The notes: generated by a model not told the origin, from the letters alone. 32,000 nucleotides of DNA from Microcystis aeruginosa NIES-2549 (GCF_000981785.2 NZ_CP011304.1:2760001-2792000); one strand, 5' to 3'. Positions 669 to 29,667 are shown, counted from the stretch's first letter. Made by a program: numbers and translations.

Positions 669-765
669 ATAGGACTGTCTGAATAATAGCAAATCCGTTT
701 TTAATAGTCTGGTTAACTCCCAAGCGAACTTTAAAAACCCACTTCCCACTTCCCACAGCCTAGGA

Positions 766-2709
766 TTATAAAGGGAAGATTTGAGCGAAATTTTGAGAAA
801 TAGTTTTAGCTTTCAATTCACTGACGAAATTTTTACGAGGAGCTGCCGTCGCTCCGAATACAGTAACTATTTGGTAATCTCCTAAATCAGCAATCCACAC
901 AGGAGAAGGTTTAGCTCCACCACTGACTTTACCACAGAGATTACCATCATATTCTCTTTGACCATTTTTACTGGTAATTTTCAAAGTATCACTGTGAAGA
1001 ATCGCTAAAGCATGGGGTTTACCTCTTTGTTCATTTCCTGCACAGACAAAAATTTGACAGTTACTATCGGCTGCATCAATCCATTGATTTTGTGAAACTT
1101 GATCTACTGTTCTGAGATTATTAGTATTGATATTGGTTTCACTAATGTTATCCAAAATACCATAAAAATCTCGCAATCTTTGCTGAAATTGTTGTTTAAA
1201 ACCCTGCAGATCATTGGGAATTGCCCAAAAATCTTCTTCACTGTCAATATACAATGTCGAACCACGAAACCAGGGGGCGTGTTCACGACTTTTGCGAGAA
1301 TAACTAGGTCGTCTTGCACCTTGACCAATACCACCCATATCAGCTAAAAACCAAGTCAAATGTTTAGCTAATTTTTTGACAGCTTCTTCTTTATCTTTTG
1401 GGGTTTCAGAAGATAAAGATAAAACTAAAGTTCCCTGTTGTTCACCACAGGGATCATTTTTACCCTGAGCATTGGTTCGAGGTTCTTTTTGGCTAACTTT
1501 ACCATCAAGAATATTCACTTGTAGATAACCGTATTTTTTAGGATTAATACCGCCAAATAATTCAGTTTCAATGTTTTGAACTTCGTTAATAGGTAAAACT
1601 CCAGATGCCAAAACACGAAACCAGTATCGCAGCATCGATTTAAAGGCTGTCGGACGAACTTCTGCGACGGGTGCGCTCCGCATTTGCCATTCATTGCGTC
1701 GCTCATTCCATTGCCATTGGGTGAATCGTTGATAACCATGAATTAATTGACCTTCTAGCTCGAAATCCAAGCGATAAAACCCCGAATCATGGCTATTTTT
1801 ATTATTATCAGGATGACTCGTATCATCAATTTGCTTTAATTGACCGTAACCACTATTTACTTGTGAACCTATGCCAAGCTGTAAACCTTTTTTAAGCCAT
1901 TGTTTTACCTGTTCCAGTATCTTTTCATCACCACAGTTACTAGCTAGACGTAAACCAATTAAAAAAGTTGGTTCTTTGAGAGACAAAAAAGGATTAGGGT
2001 TAGGAGAATATTGCGTAGAGTCATCTTTCCATGACCAAATATTATTAGCCATGTCCACTTCTAATCCACCATTTTTAGTCGGTAAAGGATAGGCATCAAA
2101 AAAGATAACTTTACCCGTTTTATTTTTTTTCTCTTTGGCGTTTATATCACCAAAATAGAGAGTGGTTTTTTCCACAGCTTCTTTCCATTCCAGATTATTT
2201 TCCGCCATGATTTCTCGGATGGCTTGGTTTCTGGCAACACCGCGCAAGGTACTAGATGGAATATAGGGCATTCCGAGGGCATCAAAAGCAGGTAAAAGAA
2301 TACTTTCCGGTCCACGATGACCACTGACACGAATACGCCAAGTGGATTTGACTTGAAAAGTGATTCCGTCTTTCGCTAACAGTTGGGTACGTTGATTGAG
2401 TTGGTCAAGACGCTGAGTATAGTTAGCATTTTCTTGGGCTGTTTGCAGAATTTGGACTTTGGTAGCGTCTTTGTAATCATGGTCAGCAGCACGCATCCAA
2501 CGGAGATATTCGACAAAACTGGCTGATTGGTCAGGTTGAGGTTCCTTTTCGGCGTTTAACCAGGGTGAGGGTTGAGGAGGATTATTATTGCCGCCGCCAC
2601 CACTGGGAGGCTTTTTGGGGGGTTGGTGGTTATTTTGCTGCTGTATAGCCGGATTTTTTAGGATGGGTTTTTGGGGGCGATTAGGGCGTGGTAAGGGGCT
2701 ATGGGACAT
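766..2709 (-). CDS. cmr6: type III-B RAMP fusion: Cmr6-like domain followed by Cmr1-like domain, with a low-complexity N-terminal tail
   Basis: Residues ~110-305 carry Cmr6 hallmarks (WRIRVSGHRG, LLPAFDALGMPYIPSSTLRGVAR, G-rich loop LGIGSQVNSGYGQL). Residues ~320-647 look Cmr1-like (VRPTAFKSMLRYWFRVLASG...ELFGG; MGGIGQGARRPSY). It is the last gene of the cas10-cmr3-cmr4-cmr5 string. Confidence 0.7.
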   Translation of the reverse strand: MSHSPLPRPNRPQKPILKNPAIQQQNNHQPPKKPPSGGGGNNNPPQPSPWLNAEKEPQPDQSASFVEYLRWMRAADHDYKDATKVQILQTAQENANYTQRLDQLNQRTQLLAKDGITFQVKSTWRIRVSGHRGPESILLPAFDALGMPYIPSSTLRGVARNQAIREIMAENNLEWKEAVEKTTLYFGDINAKEKKNKTGKVIFFDAYPLPTKNGGLEVDMANNIWSWKDDSTQYSPNPNPFLSLKEPTFLIGLRLASNCGDEKILEQVKQWLKKGLQLGIGSQVNSGYGQLKQIDDTSHPDNNKNSHDSGFYRLDFELEGQLIHGYQRFTQWQWNERRNEWQMRSAPVAEVRPTAFKSMLRYWFRVLASGVLPINEVQNIETELFGGINPKKYGYLQVNILDGKVSQKEPRTNAQGKNDPCGEQQGTLVLSLSSETPKDKEEAVKKLAKHLTWFLADMGGIGQGARRPSYSRKSREHAPWFRGSTLYIDSEEDFWAIPNDLQGFKQQFQQRLRDFYGILDNISETNINTNNLRTVDQVSQNQWIDAADSNCQIFVCAGNEQRGKPHALAILHSDTLKITSKNGQREYDGNLCGKVSGGAKPSPVWIADLGDYQIVTVFGATAAPRKNFVSELKAKTISQNFAQIFPL

Positions 2710-2772: not shown

Positions 2773-3162
2773 CTAGTCGCCACTTTCCACATCGGAATAG
2801 ATGGCGTTAGCCCAGAAGCTAAATTCTTGGGCGATTTCCAAGCCTAAACCCGTTAGACCCAGATAATCATCGGTAGATAAATCTTTAAGAGTAGTTAATC
2901 CTTGAGAATTAGAAAGATGATTTCTTTGAGATAACTCTTCTAGGCATTGAAAATACTTGGCAACTACCTCTTTTTTTCCTTCTTGATTTAGGGCAGTTTC
3001 CTCGGCTTTTAGGCGCATCATTCCCCAAGTAGAAAGATAGGTATAAAGTTCAAGAGCTTGTTTTTTTTGTTCTTTGCGGCGACTATCATCACCAGTATTT
3101 AAGTACAATTCTTGTAAGGCATTGAACACGGGCTTGCTAATCGTTCTGGGGTCGAATGTCAT
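2773..3162 (-). CDS. cmr5: Cmr5-like small subunit (Cas11 family)
   Basis: The call rests mainly on position between cmr4 and cmr6. The product is small and predicted all-helical. I prefer the ATG at 3162 (MTFDPRT..., 129 aa) over the TTG at 3204 used by the ORF track. I recognise no strong sequence motif. Confidence 0.5.
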   Translation of the reverse strand: MTFDPRTISKPVFNALQELYLNTGDDSRRKEQKKQALELYTYLSTWGMMRLKAEETALNQEGKKEVVAKYFQCLEELSQRNHLSNSQGLTTLKDLSTDDYLGLTGLGLEIAQEFSFWANAIYSDVESGD

Positions 3163-3182: not shown

Positions 3183-3485
3183 TTAAAAAATATTCCCTGA
3201 CCAAAGGGCATCAAGAGAGATGGCAATATCGGTAAATGTCGGGTTCAGGTTCCGAGTTTTATAGGGTAATTAGACAGCTTCTCTTATCTGTGCTTTCCCC
3301 TCGAAACGCTGACGGATAAAGTTGGACAACTCCTTGCCACTATCTCTGTGTAAAGGGAATTATGGACTCATTTCGAGAATATTAACCTTCGGTAATTCTA
3401 CACGCCGATCGATTAAAATTACCCCGGCAATCATGCGGTGATAATCGACCACTGACTATTGAGCGATGGTGAGATTATCGGTCAT
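3183..3485 (-). pseudogene. Uma2 (DUF820) family endonuclease pseudogene, N-terminal ~100 codons with three in-frame stops
   Basis: One frame reads MTDNLTIAQ*SVVDYHRMIAGVILIDRRVELPKVNILEMSP*FPLHRDSGKELSNFIRQRFEGKAQIREAV*LPYKTRNLNPTFTDIAISLD. This follows the Uma2 N-terminal pattern (..YHRM..AGIL..DDRVELI.G.I.EMSP.G..H...V..L.......G.A.V..Q.PI......EPEPDIA). A GAGG lies 6 nt upstream of the ATG at 3485. The rest of the ~190 aa family length is missing. Confidence 0.55.
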
Positions 3486-3494
3486 AAATTACCT

Positions 3495-4274
3495 CTACAA
3501 TTGTTGAACAAAACCGCGTCCTAAACTTTCCTGTCCACCTATTTGAATAATTTCATTATCTGCTAATAACCGTTTAAAATCAGCTTGTGATTGTTGTCCA
3601 GTTCCATTAGCTTGAGAGGTAATACCCCAAGGAAAATACATTAAGGTATCGGGGGGAATAGCTTCTTCATAACGAAATCCACCATCGACGGATTTATGCT
3701 CATCTAATTTAATTTTAACTTGTCTCCATAAACTCATTTGAATGAGAGTCGTGCAATGCTGATCGGGTAATACTAAGACTTTATTAATGCCACTGCTAAC
3801 AGAGTTTTGGGGAATAAAACTTGTCCAAGTTGACCAGTCTTTTAGATCATTATCCTTGAGAATGGCATCCTTGAGATAGATGTTCGTGTTGGGCTTTGTA
3901 AAACTACAGCTATATTCGGGGGGAATTGTCAGACGAGTATTAGTTAATCTTGTCCAACGACGGAGAAGTAAAGGAGAAGTGATCCAGACGACACCGTGAC
4001 TTAGAGAAGAGACGGGCAACCAGAGAATCGAGCCATCTCCTATCCAGATGTCTCCCTGTACCAAGTTTTCTGCACCTTGATCGATTTCATTACCGAATAA
4101 CTTAAATTTTAGGGTTTCTTCGGTAGCTAAAGAACGGATTTTCCCGCGAATTGTACTGGAGGGAATATAGGGTAAAGTGGTATGGGATTCACGAGCAATA
4201 CCGACTAGATTCCCCTCTTGAGTGGTTCCTCCGGTGTGTAGGGGAGAAAGTAGGTAAAAGTGAATTAAGTTCAT
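3495..4274 (-). CDS. cmr4: type III-B backbone RAMP Cmr4
   Basis: Collinear with my recollection of P. furiosus Cmr4: SPLHTGG..., RESHTTLPYIPSSTIRGKIRS, GDGSILWLPVSSLSHGVVWITSPLLLRRW, FRYEEAIPPDTLMY, IQIGGQESLGRGFV. Confidence 0.85.
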   Translation of the reverse strand: MNLIHFYLLSPLHTGGTTQEGNLVGIARESHTTLPYIPSSTIRGKIRSLATEETLKFKLFGNEIDQGAENLVQGDIWIGDGSILWLPVSSLSHGVVWITSPLLLRRWTRLTNTRLTIPPEYSCSFTKPNTNIYLKDAILKDNDLKDWSTWTSFIPQNSVSSGINKVLVLPDQHCTTLIQMSLWRQVKIKLDEHKSVDGGFRYEEAIPPDTLMYFPWGITSQANGTGQQSQADFKRLLADNEIIQIGGQESLGRGFVQQL

Positions 4275-4428
4275 GATTAATTAACCTGAGTTCAGCATAA
4301 GGAAAAGGACAGGTAGTAAGCTGAAAGTAACCTAAAATTCCGATAACCTGTCCTATATTTAGTCTAGATGCTTTATTTTATCTTGTAGATGATTTCTGTC
4401 ACCAGTTTGAAGGGCATTGGCCGCAGAA

Positions 4429-4580
4429 GTTAAGTAAGTAGTTATAATTAAATTGAAGATAGATTTTGCCTCTGATCCCCCCTGCCCCCATTATTAAGGG
4501 GGGTGCCGATAGGCGGGGGGATCCCCCCTGCCCCCCTTATTAAGGGGGGTGTCTGACAACTTTTAACACCTACCTACTTA
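4429..4580. mobile_element. MITE-like element (family A, short copy) containing two G/C hairpin units
   Basis: The ends are GTTAAGTAAGTAG (4429-4441) and CACCTACCTACTTA (4567-4580). The same ends occur in reverse order at 18407-18420 and 18838-18849. The internal GTTATAATTAAATTGAAGAT matches the reverse complement at ~18694-18714. Two copies of GATCCCCCCTGCCCCC(A/C)TTATTAAGGGGGGTG lie inside. Confidence 0.5.
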
Positions 4581-4637
4581 TTGCATCATGGAGTAATCAA
4601 ACGAGTAAGGGCAAAAAGTCTCTGTTTAAGTGAGATC

Positions 4638-8823
<4,186 letters not shown>

Positions 8824-9288
8824 AAACGCCTCAACTTTTTGCTGACTGATCTTCTTTATACAATCAATATGCCCAGGAAGCCGCCAGAGATAACAAGATG
8901 TTAAAAAGATTTTTGGTAAAATGCTTCAAAAGCTTATTCTGTCTGAGTTTCTGTTGCCATAGATTTTTTTCTATGATTATTGTCTTTGGATAGTTTTCAG
9001 TGTATGAGCTAAGACGCATCTTAACTTCCTATCCTTAGATTAGCTGAATCTCCCCTAATCCCTTTACTTTTGCTTCTTGCCCCTTGGCCCTTGCCTCATC
9101 TCAATAAGCAATTTAAATGCGCGGGCAGCTGACAAACTCGTTATCCGGTAGAATCCCTCGATGTACCACAGGCTGGAGATTTTGGCGGTTTATATGGCTG
9201 ATTTACGACCATATATAGCTATAATTAGCTTATCGGCCGCAACTGGCTTCTGAACTTCAATCCTGTTCGGACGTTTGCTGACCGACTC
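8824..9288 (+). promoter_or_regulatory. divergent cas10 / CRISPR-array intergenic region (putative leader and promoters)
   Basis: An AT-rich non-coding stretch lies between the cas10 start and the first repeat. Array orientation is inferred from the repeat 3' end ...TGGAAAC. No promoter boxes were assigned with confidence. Confidence 0.35.
9007..9118 (+). repeat. dispersed repeat / MITE (family B), copy 1, inside the CRISPR leader region
   Basis: AGCTAAGAC...GCTGAATCTCCCCTAATCCCTTTACTTTTGCTTCTTGCC...CAATAAGCAATTTAAAT is collinear with the reverse complement of 29448-29580. Confidence 0.5.
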
Positions 9289-9686
9289 TCTCTACTCAGT
9301 AGAGAAATTAATTGAATGGAAACCAGTGTTGTTCGATCGGCTTAAATTCGTTGATAATTTTCTCTACTCAGTAGGCAAATTAATTGAATGGAAACTTGAC
9401 AAGATATTTATAGGGATGTTAAATTAACATCATCTCTATACTCACTGAAGAAATTAATTGACTGGAAACAAAAGGGTTCTCCCTCTTTCAAGTTTTCAAC
9501 TGCCTGACTCTCTACTCAGTGGAGAAATTAATTGACTGGAAACAAAAGGGTTCTCCCTCTTTCAAGTTTTCAACTGCCTGACTCTCTACTCGCGCTTAGA
9601 AATTAATTGACTGGAAACATTTGTAGGGTTAATTCATGAATTAACCCTACTCTCCACTCGCGCTTAGAAATTAATTGACTGGAAAC
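9289..9686 (+). CRISPR. CRISPR array, 6 degenerate 35-36 nt repeats and 5 spacers
   Basis: Repeats lie at 9289-9323, 9361-9395, 9435-9469, 9509-9543, 9583-9618 and 9651-9686. The shared core is TCTCTACTC-N7/8-GAAATTAATTGA(A/C)TGGAAAC. Spacers are 37, 39, 39, 39 and 32 nt. The array is adjacent to, and divergent from, the Cmr operon. Confidence 0.8.
9623..9650. repeat. 28-nt perfect palindrome GTAGGGTTAATTCATGAATTAACCCTAC occupying the last spacer slot
   Basis: It is its own reverse complement. A second copy with two complementary substitutions lies at 18453-18480. Confidence 0.85.
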
Positions 9687-11005: not shown

Positions 11006-11374
11006 CTAACGCGGTAGCGTTTCCACTTTCGGGGAGTTTTGGTTCTCGACGTATTTTTTTAGTTGTTCGATGGTAATGTCGCCACAACTGGCCACGAAAT
11101 AAGCTCCCGTCCAAAAATAAGGTTTATTGTAGAAATACTTTGCAGCCAAATCCGGAAATTCTTTTCTAATTAAGCGACTACTAACTGTTTTAAGGTTAGC
11201 GATTAATTTGGATAAAGCGATGTCAGGTTTGTAATCGATAATCCGGTGAACGTGATCCGATTCACCGTTGAAATCAAGTAAAGTGCTTTCCCATTTTGTC
11301 AGCGTTGACACAAAGATTTCTTTCAGTCGGACTAAGATTTCATTATTAATAGCTTTTCGTCGGTATTTGATCAC
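11006..11374 (-). CDS. tnpA: IS200/IS605 Y1 (HUH) transposase TnpA
   Basis: HUH motif SDHVHRII and the catalytic-Tyr region PYFWTGAYFVASCG are present. The homologous frame stays open upstream to 11452 (..YNHRFCSVYKLTAPVVFV) but contains no ATG, GTG or TTG. The GTG at 11374 is the first canonical start. Confidence 0.85.
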   Translation of the reverse strand: MIKYRRKAINNEILVRLKEIFVSTLTKWESTLLDFNGESDHVHRIIDYKPDIALSKLIANLKTVSSRLIRKEFPDLAAKYFYNKPYFWTGAYFVASCGDITIEQLKKYVENQNSPKVETLPR

Positions 11375-11487
11375 GAATACGACAGGAGCGGTAAGTTTAT
11401 AAACAGAACAAAATCTATGATTGTAATCAGTTGAAATATTGGGCGGTAAGTGTTATGATTTAACTATACATCACGAAACTAACAACA

Positions 11488-12747
11488 ATGATAACGCTTA
11501 CCTACCAGTACAAACTAAAGGTAAACAGACAACAGGAACGGGAGATAATCCACATTCTTGATGTTTGCAAAAGCGTTTATAATTACGCTCTTTCAGAACG
11601 GAAAGATTGGTTAAACTCTCGAAAGTGTCTTGCGGATCACTGTTCGCTAGTTTCCGAGTACATAATTCCTGCGGATCAACCCTATCCTAATTACTTCGTT
11701 CAAGCTAAAAATCTAACGGAAGCTAAAAAAATCTATCCGATATTAAAGACGGTTAACGCTCAAGTTTTACAGCAAGTATTAAAAACTTTAGATAAGGCGT
11801 TTAACCAGATGAAGTCGAAAAGTTTTGGCTTTCCTAGATTTAAGAAAAAGATGCGGAGTTTTGTTTTTCCTGCGCTGTCAAAAAACTTCTTAGGTGACGA
11901 ATACTTAAATTTTCCACAATTGGGAAAAATTCGGATTAGGAAATCTAGGGAGTACCCGTCTGGGTTTGAGCCTAAACAAGCTCGAATTATCCAAAAAGCG
12001 TCGGGATTTTACGTTTCGGTTTCTTTCCAATCTACGGAATTAGTTCCCGATATGACAGTAGGGAAGACCTGTTTAGGAATTGACGCGGGAATTGAAAGTT
12101 TTGTTGCTACTTCACGGGGAGATTTAATCAAAGACCCTCGATTTTTGTTGAAAGTACAGAGTAAGCTTAAATTGCTACAAGGACGCTTGAAACGGAAAAC
12201 TAAAGGCTCTAGCAATTGGTTAAAACTTCAGGAGAAGATAGCAAGATTACATGAAAAAGTGTCTAATACTCGTAGAGATTGGCACTTTAAACTAAGTCAT
12301 TACCTTTGCGATCTCGCTGATAATATCTTCGTTGAAGATATTAACTTCGTTTCTTGGTCTAGAGGGATCGTTAGAAAACAATCTCTAGATTCGGCTATCG
12401 GTAGTTTTATTAACGAGATACTACCGTTTGTTATTTGGAAACGGGGAAAATATTATCTTAAAGTCGATAAAAACGGAACTTCCCAGGATTGTCCGAATTG
12501 TGGCGCGTTCACTGGTAAAAAGTCGTTATCGGAAAGAGTTCACCGGTGTGATTCTTGCGGTAACATCGAACCAAGAGATACGGCATCAGCAAAGGTAATC
12601 GAGAACCGAGGAAAAAACGCGGTCGGACTGACCGTGTTAGAAAACGCTCGCGGAGGCGATTTGACGGGGATCGACCGGTTAAACCAAGTCGATCTAGTTA
12701 AAAGCCTAAGAACCGAGAATCCCCCGCTACACCGCGCGAGCGGTTAG
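11488..12747 (+). CDS. tnpB: TnpB (IS605 OrfB family) RNA-guided endonuclease
   Basis: 419 aa with a RuvC-like triad (CLGIDAGIES; IFVEDINF; EPRDTASAKVI) and a zinc ribbon (CPNCGAF...HRCDSCGN). It is paired with tnpA inside hairpin-bounded ends. Confidence 0.9.
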   Translation: MITLTYQYKLKVNRQQEREIIHILDVCKSVYNYALSERKDWLNSRKCLADHCSLVSEYIIPADQPYPNYFVQAKNLTEAKKIYPILKTVNAQVLQQVLKTLDKAFNQMKSKSFGFPRFKKKMRSFVFPALSKNFLGDEYLNFPQLGKIRIRKSREYPSGFEPKQARIIQKASGFYVSVSFQSTELVPDMTVGKTCLGIDAGIESFVATSRGDLIKDPRFLLKVQSKLKLLQGRLKRKTKGSSNWLKLQEKIARLHEKVSNTRRDWHFKLSHYLCDLADNIFVEDINFVSWSRGIVRKQSLDSAIGSFINEILPFVIWKRGKYYLKVDKNGTSQDCPNCGAFTGKKSLSERVHRCDSCGNIEPRDTASAKVIENRGKNAVGLTVLENARGGDLTGIDRLNQVDLVKSLRTENPPLHRASG

Positions 12748-12775
12748 CGGGGGAGAGTCAACAGGATACTTTAGA
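12600..12775 (+). ncRNA. predicted omega-RNA (reRNA) scaffold of TnpB; extent approximate
   Basis: This is inferred only from characterised TnpB systems, where the guide RNA derives from the tnpB 3' end plus the right end. The strong right-end hairpin 12721-12753 lies in this region. There is no direct evidence. Confidence 0.3.
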
Positions 12776-12895
12776 TTATGTTCAAGAAAAAACTGGGTTT
12801 TCTGGCGATTTTCCATCAGAATGAGGCATGGGCAAGGGGCTTAAACCCTTTGTTGGCAAAACTTGTCGATACCTCAGTAACGTGAAAAGCGCTAC

Positions 12896-13008
12896 ATACC
12901 ATTTTTCTAAAGTAATGGCAAAGATGGTTAATTGCCCTCACCCCCAACCCCTCTCCCAGAAGGGGAGAGGGCAGTAGGATGCCTGCCACTAATAAAGAAA
13001 AATGGTAT
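12896..13008. mobile_element. MITE-like element with 13-bp perfect terminal inverted repeats
   Basis: ATACCATTTTTCT (12896-12908) pairs with AGAAAAATGGTAT (12996-13008). The interior carries a CCCTCTCCC...GGGAGAGGG hairpin. Confidence 0.45.
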
Positions 13009-13083
13009 TACTTGACAAACAGTTGTTTGTTAAGGGACACTTGTGAAGTATTCTTTTTGACATTTAGAGGGTTGTAACTAACT

Positions 13084-13437
13084 ATGCAACTAAGAGCGTT
13101 TTTCATGGGTCTGACTGTAGCTGGTTTGGTTATACCCAGTGTATTAGGAAGTACATCAAAAGTTTTAGCTGAAGACATTACCTTTACCTTGGAAAATAAA
13201 ACCAGGGTAAATATGACAGAATTTTACGCTTCTCCTAGTGGGGTTAAAAGTTGGGAAAACGATATTTTAGGTGATGATGTTTTAGGCTCTGGAGAGCAGG
13301 TGGAAATTAATATCAATGATGAGCGTACAACTTGTAACTATGACTTTCAAGCCAAATTTGCTGATGGCGATGTAGTGGAAAAATATAATATCAATATTTG
13401 TGAATTGGCAGGTGGTAGTTACGAATTTTATGATTAG
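13084..13437 (+). CDS. small secreted protein of unknown function
   Basis: A signal peptide (MQLRAFFMGLTVAGLVIPSVLGSTSKVLA) is followed by a ~90 aa acidic domain with two Cys. Confidence 0.55.
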   Translation: MQLRAFFMGLTVAGLVIPSVLGSTSKVLAEDITFTLENKTRVNMTEFYASPSGVKSWENDILGDDVLGSGEQVEININDERTTCNYDFQAKFADGDVVEKYNINICELAGGSYEFYD

Positions 13438-13450
13438 GTCGAATAATTAC

Positions 13451-13486
13451 TCTCTACTTGTGCTTAAGAAATTAATTGAGATGAAC
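13451..13486 (+). repeat. orphan, degenerate copy of the CRISPR repeat
   Basis: TCTCTACTTGTGCTTAAGAAATTAATTGAGATGAAC compares with repeat 5/6 TCTCTACTCGCGCTTAGAAATTAATTGACTGGAAAC. It has the same orientation and lies 3.8 kb beyond the array. Confidence 0.65.
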
Positions 13487-13597
13487 GTAGTGGATTGTTT
13501 CAGCTAATTTGGTGTATTAGAAAAATGCTAGAAATTCTATAATCTAAGACTTTAAGCCGAAATCTATTGTCCTATTTTAGCTGAAACAATCCACTAC
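13487..13597. mobile_element. MITE with perfect 21-bp terminal inverted repeats
   Basis: GTAGTGGATTGTTTCAGCTAA (13487-13507) pairs with TTAGCTGAAACAATCCACTAC (13577-13597). The core is AT-rich and 69 nt long. Confidence 0.6.
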
Positions 13598-13609
13598 AAA
13601 TAATTTTAC

Positions 13610-14035
13610 TTAGCGATCACTATCTTCTAAATATCTCTGCAAATCTTTGGTACGCTGCTCGGTGACATCTGCCAAACAAAAACCGTAAACCATCGGAGCC
13701 ATAGATCCTCCTTCAAAGGCACTTCTTTCAAATTCGCAACTGCTGTCTCTAAACTTAATCCAAGCTTGTTGGGCGCTAATTAATTTTTGTTTGTGAGCAG
13801 CTGACAGTTTTGGCAGCAGTTGTTGATAAACTTGGTTTAACTTGCGATCGGCATTTTGATAAGCTATGCTGGCACAAATGTTCATTTCGCTTTGAGTCTG
13901 CGGATTGTTACAGTTAGGGCGTTGAGCTAGTTGCCGGTCCCTCGCTCCAGATGTTGGACCAGCAATGCTACGGGTAGCCATCCCGACGGTGAACAAACTT
14001 GCGATGCTTAACACTGTTAGTAAAAACTTACCCAT
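13610..14035 (-). CDS. LprI-family (DUF1311) periplasmic protein
   Basis: A signal peptide plus the DUF1311 pattern C..P.TQSEMNIC....Y..ADRKLNQVYQQL....QQAWIKFRDSSC. Confidence 0.6.
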   Translation of the reverse strand: MGKFLLTVLSIASLFTVGMATRSIAGPTSGARDRQLAQRPNCNNPQTQSEMNICASIAYQNADRKLNQVYQQLLPKLSAAHKQKLISAQQAWIKFRDSSCEFERSAFEGGSMAPMVYGFCLADVTEQRTKDLQRYLEDSDR

Positions 14036-14205
14036 ATCTATTTATTTTAACGATAGTAAAAATAAGATAGCAGAAATGCAATAGAGCCGAAGATACGAGT
14101 CTTGGACGATATGAAGGTTCAGGTTCCCCGCGTCGGGGGTATTCCCACATTTTATCTAAAAACACTATATGGTAATGTTTAATTTTATTCGCGTAAAAGT
14201 TGCTT

Positions 14206-15225
14206 ATGTCCTTACCTGAACTCCCTCTTCATCTTCAATTAACCCAAATGGTTTCGGGTTACTGGCTATCTCAGGCCATCTATGCTGCGGCTAAATTAAG
14301 TCTAGCCGAGCATTTGAGCAAAGGAGCGAAATCTTGTCAAGAGTTGGCCTCCCTAACGGAGACTAATCCTGCTGCTTTATATCGACTGATGAGAGCGTTA
14401 GCTAGTGTGGGAATTTTTCAAGAAACTGAATCTCAACAGTTTATACTAACTCCCTTAGCTGAACATTTATCTAGTGACCATCCCCGGTCAGTGAAAGCGA
14501 CAGCGATTATGTTAGGAGAAGCCCCCCATTATCAAGCCTGGGGAAATGTGTTACATAGTATTAAAACGGGACAACCATCCTTTGATGATGTCTTTGGGAT
14601 GGGGGTCTTTGAATATTTTCAAACTCATCCGCTAGATGCAGAGATTTTTGAACAGTCGATGAATAGTTTTTCTTTGTCGGAGGAGAAAGCTATTTTAGCT
14701 GTGTATGATTTCTCGGAATTTCAAACCCTAGTAGATGTGGGTGGTGGGTACGGTGAGATGTTGGGGACAATCTTAGAGCAATATCCCCAACTAAAAGGGA
14801 TTCTTTTTGATGAAGAATATGTAATTTCCCATTGTCAACCCACTTTAGAAAAACACGGTATTGTTGATCGTTGTCAAACCGTTGGAGGTAGTTTTTTTGA
14901 ATCCGTACCGTCGGGAGGAGATGGCTATTTATTAAAACATATTATTCATGATTGGGATGATCGACGGGCGATTGCTATTTTGAAAAACTGTTGTCAAGTT
15001 TTAGATAGTAACGGTAAAGTTTTGGTCTTGGAAATGGTTGTTCCTGCGGGTAATAATCCTTCGGCCGCTAAAATGTTAGACTTGAATATGTTAGTTATGT
15101 GTCCAGGAGGTAAAGAAAGAACCGCAGAAGAATTTGAGGAATTGTTGAGCCAAGCAGGTTTAAAATTAAATCGAATTATTCCAACTCAAGAAGATATTTG
15201 TATTATTGAATGCGTTAAAAAATAA
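14206..15225 (+). CDS. class I SAM-dependent O-methyltransferase (COMT-like, with N-terminal dimerisation domain)
   Basis: SAM motif I LVDVGGGYG, LLKHIIHDW, and an N-terminal winged-helix/dimerisation-like segment. I prefer the ATG at 14206 over the TTG at 14200. Confidence 0.75.
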   Translation: MSLPELPLHLQLTQMVSGYWLSQAIYAAAKLSLAEHLSKGAKSCQELASLTETNPAALYRLMRALASVGIFQETESQQFILTPLAEHLSSDHPRSVKATAIMLGEAPHYQAWGNVLHSIKTGQPSFDDVFGMGVFEYFQTHPLDAEIFEQSMNSFSLSEEKAILAVYDFSEFQTLVDVGGGYGEMLGTILEQYPQLKGILFDEEYVISHCQPTLEKHGIVDRCQTVGGSFFESVPSGGDGYLLKHIIHDWDDRRAIAILKNCCQVLDSNGKVLVLEMVVPAGNNPSAAKMLDLNMLVMCPGGKERTAEEFEELLSQAGLKLNRIIPTQEDICIIECVKK

Positions 15226-15229
15226 CATA

Positions 15230-15261
15230 GAAAACGGTTTTCTTTCAAGAAAACCGTTTTC
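15230..15261. terminator. bidirectional hairpin terminator between convergent genes
   Basis: A perfect 13-bp stem GAAAACGGTTTTC / GAAAACCGTTTTC with a 6-nt loop. U-rich flanks are available on both strands. Confidence 0.7.
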
Positions 15262-15267
15262 TATTGT

Positions 15268-16701
15268 TTAGATATAGGTAGCCCAAGATTTTGCCCAGGC
15301 GAGAATTTCATGAACTCGATCGAGGGTTGAAGATTCACAGTAGAGACGCAAAACCGGTTCTGTGCCACTAAAGCGAATTAACAACCAACTGCCATCTTCT
15401 AAACGGAATTTATAACCGTCTATAGGATTACAATCAGTCACTTGTTTACCGGCAATTTCCCTTAAGGGTTCCTGATCCAAAGCAGTAATTAACTGATGGC
15501 GAGCTTCCATATTAGCTAGGGGTAAATCAATACGATCATACTGAGAATAAAAACCAGTTTTATCCTGTAATTGCGCGTAAAGATCGCTTAGATCTTGGCC
15601 CGATTCTACCACTGCTTCCAAAACGTATAAAGCTGATAATAAGGCATCCCGTTCGGGAATGTGACTACCATAACCGACACCTCCCGACTCTTCCCCACCA
15701 ATTAACACAGGAGTGGTCAACATTCGATCGGCGATATACTTATAACCGATCGGGGTTTCAAAGACCGATAAACCGTATAAACTGGCTAATTTGGGGATTA
15801 AATCGGAACCGCTCACCGTTTTCACAATTTCCCCTCTCATTCCCTTTTTGCCGGCTAAATGCTCGATTAAAATCGGGATGAGATTTTGGGTGCTTAAAAA
15901 ATTCCCCCGACCATCGATCGCCGCCACTCGATCGCTATCCCCATCGAAGACCAAACCTACTCGCAAAGGGGCTAAATTTGCGCTGTGAGCCAGCTTATCG
16001 ATAATTTCCGTCAAATTTCTCGGTAAAGGTTCCGGAGAGCCGCCACCGAACAAAGGATCGCGATTGCCGCGTAATTCCGTGATCCCCACCCCCAAAAGAC
16101 GCTCTAAACCGGTAGCCGCCGCACCGTGCATAACATCGGAATAAACTTTTAGTTGTCCCGATTCGATCGCCTCGGCAATAGCGGCAATATTAACTTTTTG
16201 GCGTAAACCCTGACAATAACCTGACCATGGCTCAAAAGTGCTTAATTTACCCGCAGCTGCGTTAAACTGCGGCGGATTAGACAATAAAGCTTCAATTTGT
16301 TGGGTAATTTCTGGCGAGACAGAACCACCAAAATAACCTTTAACTTTCAAACCGAGATATTTAGCCGGGTTATGACTGGCGGTTAACACGATCGCACCGA
16401 GAGCATTTTCTGATCGAGCTGCCCAACTAAAAGCGGGAGTGGGAGCGTAGGATTGGGAGAGAAGCACATCAAAACCAGCTTTTTGCAGCGATTCCGCCGC
16501 AGTTTGAGCAAAATCCTCCGCCATAAACCGCCGATCATAGCCGACGATAATCGTCCGCGAACCCGTGATCTGACCATAATTATCCGCTAAAACCCGAGCC
16601 GCCAAGGGAGCGAGGAGAGCGACTCGATCGAAAGTAAAATCGGCGGCGATAATCCCGCGCCAGCCATCGGTTCCAAATTTAATCGGGTTCACGGTGGTCA
16701 T
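15268..16701 (-). CDS. alpha-D-phosphohexomutase (phosphoglucomutase/phosphomannomutase family)
   Basis: FGTDGWRG N-terminus, active-site Ser loop TASHNPAKYLGLK, metal loop FDGDSDR and sugar loop GGEESGG. Confidence 0.85.
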   Translation of the reverse strand: MTTVNPIKFGTDGWRGIIAADFTFDRVALLAPLAARVLADNYGQITGSRTIIVGYDRRFMAEDFAQTAAESLQKAGFDVLLSQSYAPTPAFSWAARSENALGAIVLTASHNPAKYLGLKVKGYFGGSVSPEITQQIEALLSNPPQFNAAAGKLSTFEPWSGYCQGLRQKVNIAAIAEAIESGQLKVYSDVMHGAAATGLERLLGVGITELRGNRDPLFGGGSPEPLPRNLTEIIDKLAHSANLAPLRVGLVFDGDSDRVAAIDGRGNFLSTQNLIPILIEHLAGKKGMRGEIVKTVSGSDLIPKLASLYGLSVFETPIGYKYIADRMLTTPVLIGGEESGGVGYGSHIPERDALLSALYVLEAVVESGQDLSDLYAQLQDKTGFYSQYDRIDLPLANMEARHQLITALDQEPLREIAGKQVTDCNPIDGYKFRLEDGSWLLIRFSGTEPVLRLYCESSTLDRVHEILAWAKSWATYI

Positions 16702-17190: not shown

Positions 17191-17257
17191 AGGGTGTGGG
17201 GTGTGGGGTGTAGGGTGTAGGGTGTGGGGTGTAGGGTGTAGGGTGTAGGGTGTGGGG
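17191..17257 (+). repeat. heptamer tandem repeat (RGGGTGT)x9 + GGGG
   Basis: Counted directly: 9 units and 10 consecutive G3-4 tracts on the plus strand. Confidence 0.95.
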
Positions 17258-17270
17258 AGAACAAAGCTGC

Positions 17271-17340
17271 CTATTGCCTATTGCCTATTGCCTATTGCCT
17301 CTTGCCTATTGCCTCTTGCCTCTTGCCTCTTGCCTCCTGT
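17271..17340 (+). repeat. heptamer tandem repeat (CTMTTGC)x9 plus a degenerate tenth unit
   Basis: Counted directly. CTATTGC and CTCTTGC variants are interleaved. Confidence 0.95.
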
Positions 17341-18988: not shown

Positions 18989-20089
18989 CTAAGTATCTTT
19001 AGTCAGATAGCGGATACGAGATTTCAGAAATTCAGCGACTCCATAAATTTCATCAAGACTGTTTATATTCGTGGTTGCTTCTTTACCAGTTTCGACGTTA
19101 TCGGGAATACTGATTGATTTCTTGCCAGTTCTTTCATTGAAGCGCAGACGACAGACTGTTTTGGTTACTTTTCCATCTAAGTTGATACCAAAATAACTTC
19201 TAGTGTCTTTGAATTGAATGCGTGCGGTATTGATTTCTTCGCGTAGAATTGATTTAATAATGTAAAATCCTTCCAATTCTTCGAGGGTCGTATTAATTCC
19301 ATCTCCCCCTGTTTCTTCTGGTGGAGTATCTGCTGCTGCATCAGCAGGATTTGGTTCGGGTTCTTTTCTAAAAACTTCCTCAAATTTTTCTTTGATGATA
19401 TCATTGATATACTCTTTGAGAGAACGCTTAATAATTTCTGTGAATTTTTCGACAACCGATGCAGTTCTCACTCCAGAATACACATGACTAACAAAAAACT
19501 TAACAAAGTCGGGGGAAGGATCATTTAATTGCTGGGCAATCACTTTTTTAACTTCTTTGGTGTACAATAAATTGCGAGCAGCCTCTTTTATTTTGCCAGA
19601 ATTGAAGTCAGATGTGCTAGTGCTAGATTTAGAAAATCGTTTTAATTCGTTAACAGAAGATTCGTCAAAGTCGAGGATGTTAAACTCAAAAAATGGCTTA
19701 TCGTCCATGATATTATCCTTGACAGTATCCGTATAAAAACGATAGATAATCCCATTAGTTAAAACTCCAAAGTTAGCTCCAGTTGCATTAAAATATCGAT
19801 GCAGTTGGGAACTATGTTTAGGATGCTCAAGATTTTGATGACAGCTTTTACATTCCATCAAAATAATCGGTTGATTGTCCAAACAAATAGCATAATCTAC
19901 TTTTTCCCCTTTTAATCCAGTTAAATCGGCACTATATTCGGGGTGAACTTCCATCGGATTGAATACATCGTAACCCCATGCTTGCAAAAAAGGCATAATA
20001 AAAGCTGTTTTGGTTGCCTGTTCGTTTTGGATTTGAGAACGAGAGGTTTCAACTTTTTGAGCAATTTCTTTGAGTTTATCGATTTCCAT
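18989..20089 (-). CDS. stand-alone PD-(D/E)xK protein with a type I restriction enzyme HsdR N-terminal-like domain and an uncharacterised C-terminal domain
   Basis: The N-terminal ~130 aa match the HSDR_N pattern (TKTAFIMPFLQAWGYDV...KVDYAI...PIILMECKS...QLHRY......FGVLTNG..YRFY). A Pro/Glu/Ala-rich linker and a ~110 aa C-terminal domain follow. The gene is visibly AT-rich. Confidence 0.6.
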   Translation of the reverse strand: MEIDKLKEIAQKVETSRSQIQNEQATKTAFIMPFLQAWGYDVFNPMEVHPEYSADLTGLKGEKVDYAICLDNQPIILMECKSCHQNLEHPKHSSQLHRYFNATGANFGVLTNGIIYRFYTDTVKDNIMDDKPFFEFNILDFDESSVNELKRFSKSSTSTSDFNSGKIKEAARNLLYTKEVKKVIAQQLNDPSPDFVKFFVSHVYSGVRTASVVEKFTEIIKRSLKEYINDIIKEKFEEVFRKEPEPNPADAAADTPPEETGGDGINTTLEELEGFYIIKSILREEINTARIQFKDTRSYFGINLDGKVTKTVCRLRFNERTGKKSISIPDNVETGKEATTNINSLDEIYGVAEFLKSRIRYLTKDT

Positions 20090-24219: not shown

Positions 24220-24540
24220 GGGATTTGGGGAGATGGGGAGATATGCCGCCTCAATTGCTTGGTATTGTCGTCTTCACGTCTTGAGTGGAATGCTGGACAC
24301 CTCTGTGGGGTAATTATCCCCAAATTGAGGTGATTAAACCGCACGGTGCGCTATTAAGTCCTATTAAGGGGTGTTAGACCGATGGCAGTGGGATACTATA
24401 ATAGAGGGGGTTGCTCGATCGCAGGGGGCGGTATAATTAATAGTTAGCGCAGCCATGTCTTCCCACAATCCCTTCTTAAGTGGTAGAATACACGTTCTAA
24501 TTATGGTTGTGTTTTAGGTGAAAATGAAAAGGGATTGAGA

Positions 24541-25854
24541 ATGGATGTAAAGCAGTTAAAGGTGATCGACCTTTTTGCGGGTGCGGGTGGGTTTGGTCTA
24601 GGGTTTAAGTTGGCTGGGTATGATTTATTATGCTCGCTGGAATTTGATCAATGGGCTTGTGATACCTTAAGAGAGAATGATAAACAGCAGGTTGTTGTAG
24701 AGAAAGATATTCGTGATTTCCAAGCACCTGATGAAATCAAGTCTGTTTGTTCTATTACGCCTGACTTAATCATTGGAGGGCCACCTTGTCAAGGCTTTAG
24801 TATTGCTGGTCCAGCGCAAAAAGATCCAAAGGATCCTCGAAACAGCTTGTTTGTTGATTTTGCTCGATGGGTTGAATATTTACAACCTACAGCCTTTGTA
24901 ATGGAGAATGTAAAAGGGTTATTGTCACGAAACAATGCGGCACATGAGCGCGTGATAGACATTATCCAAAACACATTTGAAAATATTGGTTACAGTGTAG
25001 AACTTTGGGTATTGAATGCCGCCAATTTCGGTGTGCCTCAAACTAGGGAAAGAATATTCATTGTTGGAAACAATTTAGGTATAGATAAAATCGGGGAACC
25101 CCAAATAAACCATAATCTAGATATCACAGGTTATCCAGAACAAAATGAACAATTATCATCATTCCCAAAGGGAGAATTTTCTCTTGTCCCCGCGATAACT
25201 TTGTGGGACGCAATATCTGACTTGCCAAATCTACAAGCTAGTGAAGGGTGCGAGGTGCAGGCATATTTGCATAGACCGACAAATTCTTATCAGGAATGGG
25301 CAAGAGAAAATTCTAATGTGCTGTTCAATCATGTAGCAATGAATCATTCACCTCGTCTGGTCGAAAGATTCAAACATATAGGATGGGGGGAATCAAGCGC
25401 AGATGTCCCTCCAGAACACATGCCACGCACACGTAACGGCAATGGCAATCTGTCTCATCAGGCTTATGACCAGAACAATCGCAGGTTGCATCCTTATAAA
25501 CCGTCTCATACCATTGCCGCTTCTTTCTATGCCAACTTTATACATCCTTTTCAACACAGAAATATTACGGCACGAGAAGGAGCACGCCTTCAATCATTCC
25601 CTGATTGGTACAGATTTATGGGCAAGAAAACAACTCCTTCCCATAAATTACTAAAACGCGAAGGGCGGTTGGAAGATGCCCATTTATGCCAATATAACCA
25701 AATAGGCAATGCCGTTCCACCTTTGTTAGCTAGAGCGATAGCAATTCATTTACGCAAGGAGTTGTTTGATGTTAGTACACGGTTCCAATCTGCTTCAAAA
25801 AGAAGCACATCAGACGAAATACTTGGACGCAGAGAGCCGTCAATACCTCGCTGA
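24541..25854 (+). CDS. DNA (cytosine-5)-methyltransferase
   Basis: Motif I DLFAGAGGFGLGF, motif IV GGPPCQGFS, motif VI ENV, motif VIII QTRERIFIVG and motif X QIGNAVPP. The ATG is at 24541. Confidence 0.9.
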   Translation: MDVKQLKVIDLFAGAGGFGLGFKLAGYDLLCSLEFDQWACDTLRENDKQQVVVEKDIRDFQAPDEIKSVCSITPDLIIGGPPCQGFSIAGPAQKDPKDPRNSLFVDFARWVEYLQPTAFVMENVKGLLSRNNAAHERVIDIIQNTFENIGYSVELWVLNAANFGVPQTRERIFIVGNNLGIDKIGEPQINHNLDITGYPEQNEQLSSFPKGEFSLVPAITLWDAISDLPNLQASEGCEVQAYLHRPTNSYQEWARENSNVLFNHVAMNHSPRLVERFKHIGWGESSADVPPEHMPRTRNGNGNLSHQAYDQNNRRLHPYKPSHTIAASFYANFIHPFQHRNITAREGARLQSFPDWYRFMGKKTTPSHKLLKREGRLEDAHLCQYNQIGNAVPPLLARAIAIHLRKELFDVSTRFQSASKRSTSDEILGRREPSIPR

Positions 25855-26707
25855 GATTAGAGAAAAATACAATGCTTGGCATCTAGCCAATGCCCAGTTA
25901 ATTGGGCCATCTGCGAAGTGCCTAGATCAGGATCAAGAAATAGTTCAACAACGTGTTGTTCTGCTTGAAGAGTATAAAGATTTTCTTGATCAACAACATT
26001 ATGCAGAAAAGTTTGACTCTCGCTCTAATCTTCATTCCTCTGTTCTGGAAGAATTTTTGTACTACTTGTTCCGGGATTTAGTAGCAGACTTTGGGAAAAA
26101 CGCACTTATCGGCAAATCCCATGCCTTCAAGGACATATTTTTTACCCCACCTAATTATCAAGGTATGATGGAACGTGCTCATGCTCGCATTGAGCGCAAA
26201 GATCATGACTTTGTAATTGGGGTAACCATATCGGCAAACCTTGATTTGAAGACAAATCGCGACCATGAAAAGGATGGGCAATTGAGAATTGCAGAGGAAC
26301 CGGGCGAATATACTGCGCGTTGGCAAGAAAACTCTGAAATACACTACTTTGATATAGCTGCTGTAGCTATTGAATGCAAAACGTATCTGGATAAGACAAT
26401 GCTTGAAGGGTCATCGCGTGCTGCTGAACAATTGAAAGCTCGTAACCCTAATTCTTTGTACATAGTTGTCATGGAATGGCTTAAGCTTACCAGTGCCGTC
26501 AATCTCCACAAGTATGAGGTTGATCAAATATACGTTTTTCGGAAACAGAAAAACACAGACAGGGAATTTCGATTTGCTGGCAGTTACCACAAGAAACCTA
26601 TTGATCCCAATGTCGTATGGCATCTGTATAAAACTGTCCGCAATCACCTTACAAAAGATTGGGAAGGTGGGGTAGAACAAGGATTAGAGCGGGGGTGGTT
26701 ACTCTAG
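25769..26707 (+). CDS. putative type II restriction endonuclease (PD-(D/E)xK) cognate to the upstream C5 methyltransferase
   Basis: It overlaps the methyltransferase 3' end by 86 nt. A candidate catalytic motif is FDIAAVAIECKTYLD (D...E-x-K). I cannot name the family without a search. Confidence 0.5.
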   Translation: MLVHGSNLLQKEAHQTKYLDAESRQYLAEIREKYNAWHLANAQLIGPSAKCLDQDQEIVQQRVVLLEEYKDFLDQQHYAEKFDSRSNLHSSVLEEFLYYLFRDLVADFGKNALIGKSHAFKDIFFTPPNYQGMMERAHARIERKDHDFVIGVTISANLDLKTNRDHEKDGQLRIAEEPGEYTARWQENSEIHYFDIAAVAIECKTYLDKTMLEGSSRAAEQLKARNPNSLYIVVMEWLKLTSAVNLHKYEVDQIYVFRKQKNTDREFRFAGSYHKKPIDPNVVWHLYKTVRNHLTKDWEGGVEQGLERGWLL

Positions 26708-26927: not shown

Positions 26928-27182
26928 TTGGCACTGGTTTCAAACGATAACAATGATGGAAATAATTTTTCAATAGAAAGAGATGTAAAAAATCAAGGTA
27001 AAACTACGATCAAGATCAATGGGCAAATTGGAAAAGAAGTCATTGGAAAAATTGATATGCCTGAACACAAATCAGCTAGGAAAGAATTAGACCGAGTACG
27101 TCTGCTTTTTTATGTGACTTTTGCAGGCGGCAAGGGATACCTTGATAATAAAATATTTCTAAGGGATGTTATTAATGCGTGA
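26928..27182 (+). CDS. small ORF of unknown function overlapping the N6-methyltransferase start (may not be a real gene)
   Basis: TTG start, with the first in-frame ATG only at codon 44. It overlaps the downstream ATG by 17 nt. No motif was recognised. Confidence 0.2.
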   Translation: MALVSNDNNDGNNFSIERDVKNQGKTTIKINGQIGKEVIGKIDMPEHKSARKELDRVRLLFYVTFAGGKGYLDNKIFLRDVINA

Positions 27183-28839: not shown

Positions 28840-28970
28840 ATGCTCATTCATTCAAGCAAGTGATTGCCAGCTAACAACGCCTCTGCACACCGACTGCCGA
28901 GAGTCAATCGGTTATGATGCTAGGGTTATCCCCACAGTGAACAGCAATCAGTGAACTGAAAACTCACATC

Positions 28971-29001
28971 TGATCACTGATCACTGATCACTGACTTCCC
29001 A
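28971..29001 (+). repeat. heptamer tandem repeat (TGATCAC)x4
   Basis: Counted directly. Confidence 0.9.
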
Positions 29002-29324: not shown

Positions 29325-29332
29325 TTCTTTAA

Positions 29333-29367
29333 TCAGTTATCAGTGAGCAGTAATCAGTAATCAGTGA
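29333..29367 (+). repeat. degenerate heptamer repeat (TCAGTNA)x5, inverse orientation of the 29581 array
   Basis: TCAGTTA TCAGTGA GCAGTAA TCAGTAA TCAGTGA. TCAGTTA is the reverse complement of TAACTGA. Confidence 0.85.
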
Positions 29368-29580: not shown

Positions 29581-29667
29581 TAACTGATAACTGATAACTG
29601 ATAACTGATAACTGATAACTGATAACTGATAACTGATAACTGATAACTGATAACTGATAACTGATAA
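29581..29667 (+). repeat. heptamer tandem repeat (TAACTGA)x12.4
   Basis: Counted directly: 87 nt of perfect repeat ending 3 nt before the ATG at 29671. Confidence 0.97.

Follow-up and report, generated by a model that had tools for sequence, protein, structure and literature searches.

Cmr4 of cyanobacterial subtype III-Bv CRISPR effectors carries a conserved loop without the canonical catalytic aspartate

In type III CRISPR systems, target RNA slicing by an aspartate of the Cas7-type backbone subunit is regarded as universal, and it is seen as the built-in timer that ends the DNase activity and the cyclic oligoadenylate signalling of Cas10. For Cmr4 of Pyrococcus furiosus, the D26A exchange abolished target cleavage, and the exchanges H15A, E32A, E227A, and E228A had no apparent effect on cleavage (PMC4333402). 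Also in the III-Dv and III-E effectors every cleavage event needs one Asp at this position, and the authors of that work described the Mg2+-coordinating catalytic aspartates as conserved in all type III systems. Here, we analyze the cmr4 gene of a subtype III-Bv Cmr effector module that lies in a stretch of 32,000 nucleotides (nt) of Microcystis aeruginosa NIES-2549 (NZ_CP011304.1:2760001-2792000; this whole stretch is called the window, and positions are counted from its first letter). The encoded protein lacks the canonical Asp.

Two described systems are similar to the locus in the window. The III-Bv system of Synechocystis 6803, CRISPR3 (plasmid pSYSA; Sll7090 Cmr2, Sll7089 Cmr3, Sll7087 Cmr4, Sll7085 Cmr6-Cmr1), is active in plasmid interference in vivo, and III-Bv CRISPR RNAs (crRNAs) are matured by the host RNase E/J and not by Cas6. 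Its gene order is the same as that of the minus-strand operon in the window, which consists of cas10/cmr2, cmr3, cmr4, a cmr5-like gene, and a cmr6-cmr1 fusion. The Cmr6-Cmr1 fusion has been reported for Synechocystis III-Bv (PMC6546367), and it is present in the window too. The Cmr4 proteins are 63% identical, and Synechocystis Cmr4 has the identical Asp-less loop (PLHTGGTTQEGNLLGIARESHT). The CRISPR3 repeat is of the same family as that of the window and consists of a 5' stem-loop and a tail (GAAATTAATTGAtTGGAAAC). In contrast to the window, Synechocystis has an LLHDP motif in Cas10, csx18-cas1-cas2, 30+ repeats, and several accessory genes.

The second system is the III-B "Cluster 4" of FACHB-524 (PMC11855584), the repeat of which (CTCTCTACTCGCTAGAGAAATTAATTGAATGGAAAC) is essentially that of the window and which has the same set of subunits, including Cmr1-6. 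Cluster 4 and the window locus thus represent one system in two M. aeruginosa strains, and Cluster 4 differs from the window by its 21 spacers and a Csx1/CARF accessory gene (PMC11855584). Cluster 4 has been reconstituted in E. coli with co-expression of Cas6, and it protected against T4; its authors assumed an aspartate-based cleavage by Cmr4 (PMC11855584). The sister-strain Microcystis loci that we examined have the Asp-less loop.

The window locus belongs to subtype III-Bv, based on the Cmr6-Cmr1 fusion, the gene order, the homology to Synechocystis, the absence of cas6 from the module, and a repeat of the same family as those of CRISPR3 and Cluster 4. Among all window open reading frames (ORFs) of at least 100 amino acids (aa), no match to a Cas6 family was obtained. 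The window copy is thus a degraded member of a named and already known kind of system.

The Cmr4 loop and its distribution in cyanobacteria

The cmr4 gene (3495..4274, minus strand) encodes the Cas7-type backbone subunit of 259 aa. The protein matches TIGR02580 over the full length of the family (residues 5-256) with 121.6 bits at a curated cutoff of 87, and it matches PF03787, the Pfam family of RAMPs (repeat-associated mysterious proteins), with 77.3 bits at a cutoff of 22.1. These values are in agreement with a preliminary description of this DNA, in which the protein was taken to be a genuine Cmr4 and not a misannotated RAMP. The nearest solved structures are P. furiosus Cmr4 chains (HMMER, E = 1e-19). 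An AlphaFold2 model, generated from a 40-sequence III-Bv alignment, had a mean predicted local distance difference test (pLDDT) score of 60; when this low-confidence model was compared with the PDB using Foldseek, the top 25 matches were all Cmr4 chains, with template modeling (TM) scores of about 0.5, which speaks for a Cmr4 fold. The identity to annotated M. aeruginosa Cmr4 is 97%, and the M. aeruginosa chromosome CP012375.1 as well as three further assemblies code for exactly the same protein.

The family and probably also the fold are shared with the canonical slicers, i.e. the Cmr4 proteins of P. furiosus (D26), Thermus thermophilus, Archaeoglobus fulgidus, and Sulfolobus islandicus (Cmr-alpha/beta) as well as Csm3 (D32/D33), and so are the conserved His and the xRE, SS[IL][KR]G, YEE, and G-rich motifs. 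In the window protein these correspond to H13, R28-E29, S39-S40-T-I-R43-G44, Y202-E203-E204, and G246-G-Q-E-S-L-G-R-G254, and R47 is also retained. Throughout the clade, the motifs for assembly and RNA binding are invariant (His near the N-terminus, xRE, SSx[KR]G, YEE, and a G-rich loop near the C-terminus). The window protein differs from the canonical proteins in that GxxDLP is replaced by GNL-[LV]G and that the equivalent of K46 is an Arg.

The loop that contains the catalytic Asp in canonical Cmr4 comprises Q19-R28 (QEGNLVGIAR) in the window protein. By translation it is encoded at 4191..4220 on the minus strand (CAA GAG GGG AAT CTA GTC GGT ATT GCT CGT), within a segment of 36 residues (HTGGTTQEGNLVGIARESHTTLPYIPSSTIRGKIRS; 4131-4238) that had been quoted in the preliminary description. 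The codons of E20 and N22 are at 4215-4217 and 4209-4211, respectively, and the place of the lost Asp is between L23 (4206-4208) and V24 (4203-4205).

Three alignment methods were applied. HMMER paired V24 with D26 of P. furiosus Cmr4 and placed a one-residue gap next to it, and in the comparison with the A. fulgidus chain the Asp was an insert state relative to the window protein. MAFFT was used for 135 Cmr4 sequences, namely those of the window, Synechocystis, and P. furiosus and 132 representatives that were obtained when 1.8 billion cluster representatives were scanned exhaustively with HMMER; the window protein and the sequences closely related to it have a gap in the Asp column. When hhalign was used to align a profile of 40 sequences from the window's clade with one of 42 canonical Cmr4 sequences (probability 100%), GNL-[LV]GIARE was placed opposite GxVDLPIxRE, which corresponds to a deletion of the Asp and an exchange of the following Pro for Gly. 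All three methods agreed that the canonical catalytic Asp is absent, as had been proposed from the comparison with a P. furiosus sequence that matches PDB chain 4wnz_A. The loop is indeed one residue shorter, but the proposed V/G at the position of the Asp was found only with HMMER, as V24, whereas MAFFT and hhalign have a gap there. The Glu of QEG had been described as lying five to six positions upstream; it turned out that E20 is four residues away from V24 and five alignment columns upstream of the Asp column.

A short Gly-rich loop that lacks one residue leaves pairwise alignments ambiguous by one position, and the HMMER variants differ in that V24 stands opposite D26 or the Asp is an insert state. 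It could thus be argued that the deletion is an alignment artefact and that E20 or E29 truly occupies the catalytic position. We regard this as highly improbable. The partner of the Asp is V/L or a gap in both HMMER placements, MAFFT and hhalign concur on a deletion, and no profile alignment placed an acidic residue such as E20 at the catalytic position. E29 belongs to the xRE motif, where a Glu is usual, and is equivalent to canonical E32, the mutation of which was without effect in P. furiosus, and E20 falls into a column that varies among canonical Cmr4s. At the catalytic column, 119 of the 135 aligned proteins have an acid, and 16 do not. Because 117 of the 119 Asp-type relatives have an Asp and the other two a Glu, the absence of an acidic residue at this column is not a chance feature. 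The MAFFT and hhalign alignments show that the catalytic Asp was lost through a one-residue deletion.

The preliminary description had regarded the difference as a local active-site change of this gene. Instead, it characterizes a large group of cyanobacterial proteins. The 120 closest protein clusters, which are 64-97% identical to window Cmr4 and stem from Microcystis, Nostoc, Anabaena, Scytonema, Spirulina, Oscillatoria, Crocosphaera, Halothece, Chlorogloeopsis, and other genera, all have the loop HTGGTTQEGNL[LV]GIARE. Residues Q19, E20, G21, N22, and L23 do not vary, and only V or L is found at position 24. A species-level scan with one genome per species yielded 166 relatives, and 80 loci were retained; QEGNL[LV]GI was found in all 80. 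They represent Nostocales, Oscillatoriales, Chroococcales, Pseudanabaena, Gloeomargaritales, Thermosynechococcaceae, and hot-spring Synechococcus. When Microcystis is compared with Synechocystis, the codons of the loop show many synonymous differences, and the only change at the protein level is V/L. The mean column identity of Cmr4 in the clade is about 60%.

In a neighbor-joining tree, calculated without bootstrap support, the 16 Asp-less sequences formed one exclusive clade, and a single origin of the Asp loss, in an ancestor shared by the whole III-Bv Cmr4 clade, is likely. The same clade contains three more divergent Asp-less groups with the loops EGNLMGIAREVHT, GDLGNILEIAREVHT, and GNLNLIFRD. 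One of these three groups is represented on plasmid p1 of strain NIES-2481 (NZ_CP025929.1, record 11211-16369; L012), which encodes a second, related Cmr module with Cas10 and Cmr3. Its Cmr4 is 38% identical to that of the window and also Asp-less (loop GGSADEGNLMGIAREVHT), its Cas10 has LLED in place of HD and an intact GGDD, and TIGR03985-family, ThiF-like, and NYN-domain genes are neighbors of the module.

The loss of the Asp is coupled to further changes. An Asn two columns before the gap is present in 15 of the 16 Asp-less proteins versus about 1 of the 119 Asp/Glu-type proteins, Arg instead of K46 in 16/16 versus 3/119, and Gly instead of P28 in 12/16. An acid at most three residues upstream of the conserved Gly was found in all 16 Asp-less proteins, compared to 27 of the 119 canonical ones. 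Very strong purifying selection acts on the remodelled loop. In the species-level III-Bv loci, the HD (His-Asp) dyad of Cas10 is retained in 67 of 70 cases and both Asp residues of GGDD in 74 of 75. Because nearly all III-Bv loci keep both Cas10 motifs, the Asp loss represents a maintained design rather than decay. It is an ancient III-Bv trait that has been kept by selection.

Target binding, slicing, and the off-switch

In S. islandicus Cmr4, K46/K50, W197, E199/Y201, and the G-rich loop are required for assembly of the complex (PMC9368842), and the counterparts of these residues are all retained in window Cmr4. Its H13, R43, R47, Y202-E203-E204, and GGQESLGRG loop match residues for which a requirement in assembly, but not in catalysis, was demonstrated (PMC9368842). 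The conservation of H15 and E227 is uninformative with respect to catalysis, because the respective Ala mutants of the P. furiosus protein are fully active. The essential role of D26, on which the preliminary description had relied, is borne out by the inactivity of the D26A variant (PMC4333402). An acid in the loop region is insufficient in the canonical context, because P. furiosus Cmr4 carries E21, which is only one alignment column away from window E20, and yet the D26A variant is dead. Judged by sequence, the III-Bv backbone would therefore be competent for assembly but devoid of the sole residue that has been proven essential for slicing.

A precedent for such a backbone is known. In type VII systems (Cas5/Cas7 plus the beta-CASP RNase Cas14; PMC13069675), the backbone is derived from type III, the inactive Cas7 copies only bind the target RNA, and cleavage is outsourced to the separate RNase Cas14. 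Type VII is the closest precedent for a non-slicing III-Bv backbone, but it lacks Cas10 and brings along a nuclease of its own, whereas III-Bv retains Cas10, including HD and cyclase, and has no gene for a dedicated RNase.

The evidence tips slightly towards the view that III-Bv Cmr4 binds target RNA without canonical Asp-Mg2+ slicing and that the complex is an RNA-guided sensor for Cas10. The Cmr4 filament would still bind both crRNA and target RNA and kink the target every 6 nt, and it would no longer slice by the canonical route. The output of the sensor would pass through Cas10, which in the clade at large means the HD DNase and the GGDD cyclase. Switching off would have to occur via target release or via other nucleases, plausibly the host RNase E/J; the link of the off-switch to RNase E/J, or to an outsourcing in the manner of type VII, is speculation. 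Window Cmr4 is predicted to behave similarly to the engineered D26A variant, i.e. to assemble and to bind the target without cutting it. The loss of the Asp in the window is natural, ancient, and conserved, whereas the engineered D-to-A version is toxic in S. islandicus.

Several points weigh against a non-slicing sensor. The lack of slicing is inferred from sequence, and residues 9-51 of the AlphaFold2 model, which include the Asp-less loop, have pLDDT values below 50. A cleavage assay of any III-Bv complex was not found in the literature searched. A natural non-slicer with HD and cyclase would need an off-switch, since engineered RNase-dead Cmr4 leads to autoimmunity in S. islandicus. In addition, a loop that is among the most conserved regions of Cmr4 and that contains the potential Mg2+ ligands Q19, E20, and N22 would also fit a relocated active site.

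In the case of a relocated site, the QEGN turn (Q19-N22) would take over metal coordination or nucleophile activation, and periodic, non-canonical slicing would persist. We consider this the main alternative, as a possible but rather unlikely explanation. Its strength lies in the extreme conservation of the potential metal ligands Q19, E20, and N22 within the invariant Q19-L23 (120/120 clusters, 80/80 loci) of a protein whose columns are on average about 60% identical, in the synonymous divergence of the loop codons, and in the coupling of the Asp loss to the Asn, the K46 and P28 exchanges, and the upstream acid. The autoimmunity of S. islandicus argues that slicing is worth keeping and that loss of the timer is costly, and the canonical loop is flexible and becomes ordered only upon RNA binding (PMC4333402). 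However, every characterized type III cleavage site uses an Asp at exactly this column, and P. furiosus E21 in the adjoining column does not rescue D26A. The upstream acid shifts among the Asp-less sister clades (QEGN, GDLGN, EETGN, GEGSGN), and two short relatives (P0141 and P0213) have Ser or Ala at the position of E20. The conservation of the loop would be explained equally well by RNA binding or by a role in relaying target binding to Cas10.

Extended to the whole clade, the non-slicing reading is about evenly balanced: III-Bv effectors across cyanobacteria, including that of Synechocystis, could be natural non-slicing type III complexes that have kept the HD and the cyclase of Cas10 and in which the timer is supplied otherwise, possibly by the host RNase E/J. 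No mention of an Asp-less III-Bv Cmr4 was found in the literature searched, with Behler et al. 2018 outside its reach, and the trait appears to be unreported.

The reduced module of the window lineage and its surroundings

All five genes of the module are on the minus strand. Apart from cmr4 these are cas10/cmr2 (5809..8823, 1004 aa; TIGR02577 with 171 bits, PF12469, PF22335), cmr3 (4709..5836, 375 aa; PF09700 with 221 bits), the gene of the cmr5-like small subunit (2773..3162, 129 aa from MTFDP), and the cmr6-cmr1 fusion (766..2709, 647 aa). The cmr5-like protein has no match to a Pfam or NCBIfam family, and its assignment is based on where its gene lies and on the finding that it is conserved in every related locus. 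The fusion, the hallmark subunit of III-Bv, is a single ORF with matches to TIGR01898 (Cmr6) at residues 144-291 and to TIGR01894 (Cmr1) at residues 340-414. The window lineage comprises four assemblies (L008-L011), and it was compared with the sister Microcystis strains (L002-L007).

In Cas10 of the window, the HD dyad is replaced by Q15-A16 (8776-8781, minus strand; LLQAP versus LLHDP, CAC GAT to CAA GCT) in all four assemblies of the lineage, whereas the sister strains have LLHDP, as does Synechocystis. The Palm1 motif GDGDG (residues 667-671, 6811-6825) and the cyclase motif GGDD (residues 760-763, 6535-6546) are intact. The cyclase is the sole catalytic motif left in the window copy. With QA in place of HD and without an adjoining effector gene, output could at most proceed via effectors encoded elsewhere, or the module may be in the process of being lost. 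A similar state of Cas10, without HD nuclease and with purely cyclase-based signalling to an effector, has been described for VmeCmr; VmeCmr differs in that D26 of its Cmr4 is discussed as a slicer and the NucC effector is encoded alongside, whereas the window has neither the Asp nor an adjacent effector.

Lesions of the Cas10 HD dyad have also occurred independently elsewhere, as YP in Gloeothece and NE in Symploca, and Microcystis sp. M015S2 has RD for HD together with an exchange of GGDD for SGDN. A metagenome contig of the window lineage (L011:1466-4480) has GGDH instead of GGDD, which is either further decay or an assembly error.

Additional genes of the sister strains are missing. A gene for a Csm6-like protein of 482 aa directly follows cmr6/1 in the sister strains (L002:13829-15277; weak match of TIGR02672 to the C-terminal part), and a gene for a WCX-like protein of 417 aa is located upstream of cas10; the window lineage cleanly lacks both (window 669-765 compared). 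In one sister-strain contig csx18-cas1-cas2 is present, and none of these genes is near the module in the window. Between cmr4 and cmr5 there is a degraded remnant (3205..3494, minus strand), with an internal deletion of about 270 nt, of a Uma2-family gene (PF05685) that is intact in the sister strains (187 aa). An insertion of about 430 nt with GC-rich palindromes (4275..4708) separates the stop of cmr3 from the start of cmr4, where the sister strains have a gap of 58 nt. The arms of one palindrome (CCCCCCTTAATAAGGGGGG) are at 4485-4503 and 4531-4549, and a transposase-like looking ORF of 43 aa within the insertion (4581-4712) had no Pfam match. The insertion may have a polar effect on the expression of cmr4-cmr6/1.

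The CRISPR array (9288..9686, plus strand), which is divergent from cas10, is short and degenerate and has six 36-nt repeats; the number is 5-6 in the window lineage versus 15-29 in the sister strains. The predicted fold of the repeat has a stem-loop at positions 2-18, followed by an unpaired AU-rich tail. A 5' stem-loop with an AU-rich single-stranded 3' part would have the form of an RNase E substrate, which is characteristic of III-Bv. One spacer is duplicated within a 74-nt tandem unit (9434-9581), and the last two repeats (9581-9618, 9649-9686) lack the 5' stem (-1.2 versus -7.6 kcal/mol).

A module with a QA dyad, few repeats, missing accessory and csx18-cas1-cas2 genes, a degraded Uma2 gene, an insertion in front of cmr4, and GGDH in one metagenomic variant raises the possibility that the Asp, too, was lost by strain-specific degeneration of a CRISPR module that is disappearing. 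We give this explanation next to no credence. The same Cmr4 loop occurs in strains and species with complete modules and intact HD and GGDD, and it occurs in the experimentally active systems of Synechocystis and FACHB-524. Compared with the sister lineage, the ratio of nonsynonymous to synonymous substitution rates (dN/dS) of cmr4 is 0.25, that of the other four genes lies in the range of 0.22-0.39, and every reading frame is intact, without frameshifts. The local decay of the module is real, yet it does not explain the missing Asp. The whole module was also considered as a pseudogene, but simple neutrality is disfavored by the dN/dS values of 0.22-0.39 and by reading frames that are intact in four assemblies.

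The remainder of the window consists of ordinary Microcystis chromosomal DNA and includes psbO, psbA, genes for restriction-modification, and an IS200/IS605 pair. The latter (tnpA, encoding a Y1 transposase, and tnpB; 11006-12747) lies between the array and the neighboring genes, and it is a recent insertion, because it is absent from the corresponding place in L009 of the same lineage. A C5 cytosine methylase gene overlaps with that of a Bpu10I-like endonuclease (24535-26707), and at 27166-28752 there is a gene for an Eco57I-like N6 methylase; together with an HSDR_N protein (18989-20089), the restriction-modification genes form a small defence-rich neighborhood around psbA/psbO. Perfect or near-perfect tandem repeats of heptanucleotides (AGGGTGT, TGCCTAT, CTGATCA, TAATCAG, TAACTGA; up to 12 copies) are found in intergenic regions at 17191-17335, 28970-28994, 29330-29365, and 29581-29667.

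Consequences for type III immunity

The window itself contains a reduced copy of a known system. The absence of the Asp from its Cmr4 and from the entire clade is solid at the level of the aligned proteins, and it is at odds with the stated generalization for type III systems. An old, large, and functional Asp-less clade would mean either that type III immunity can operate without self-slicing and with another off-switch, or that Cas7 has found a second catalytic solution. Both alternatives are testable in CRISPR3 of Synechocystis and in Cluster 4 of FACHB-524 expressed in E. coli. The finding is relevant to published work that presumed the aspartate mechanism, as in the case of FACHB-524 (PMC11855584), and to the use of III-Bv complexes as RNA sensors that spare their target. 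If the non-slicing reading is true, III-Bv would be the first case in nature that departs from the rule of target cleavage by a Cas7 aspartate in all type III effectors.

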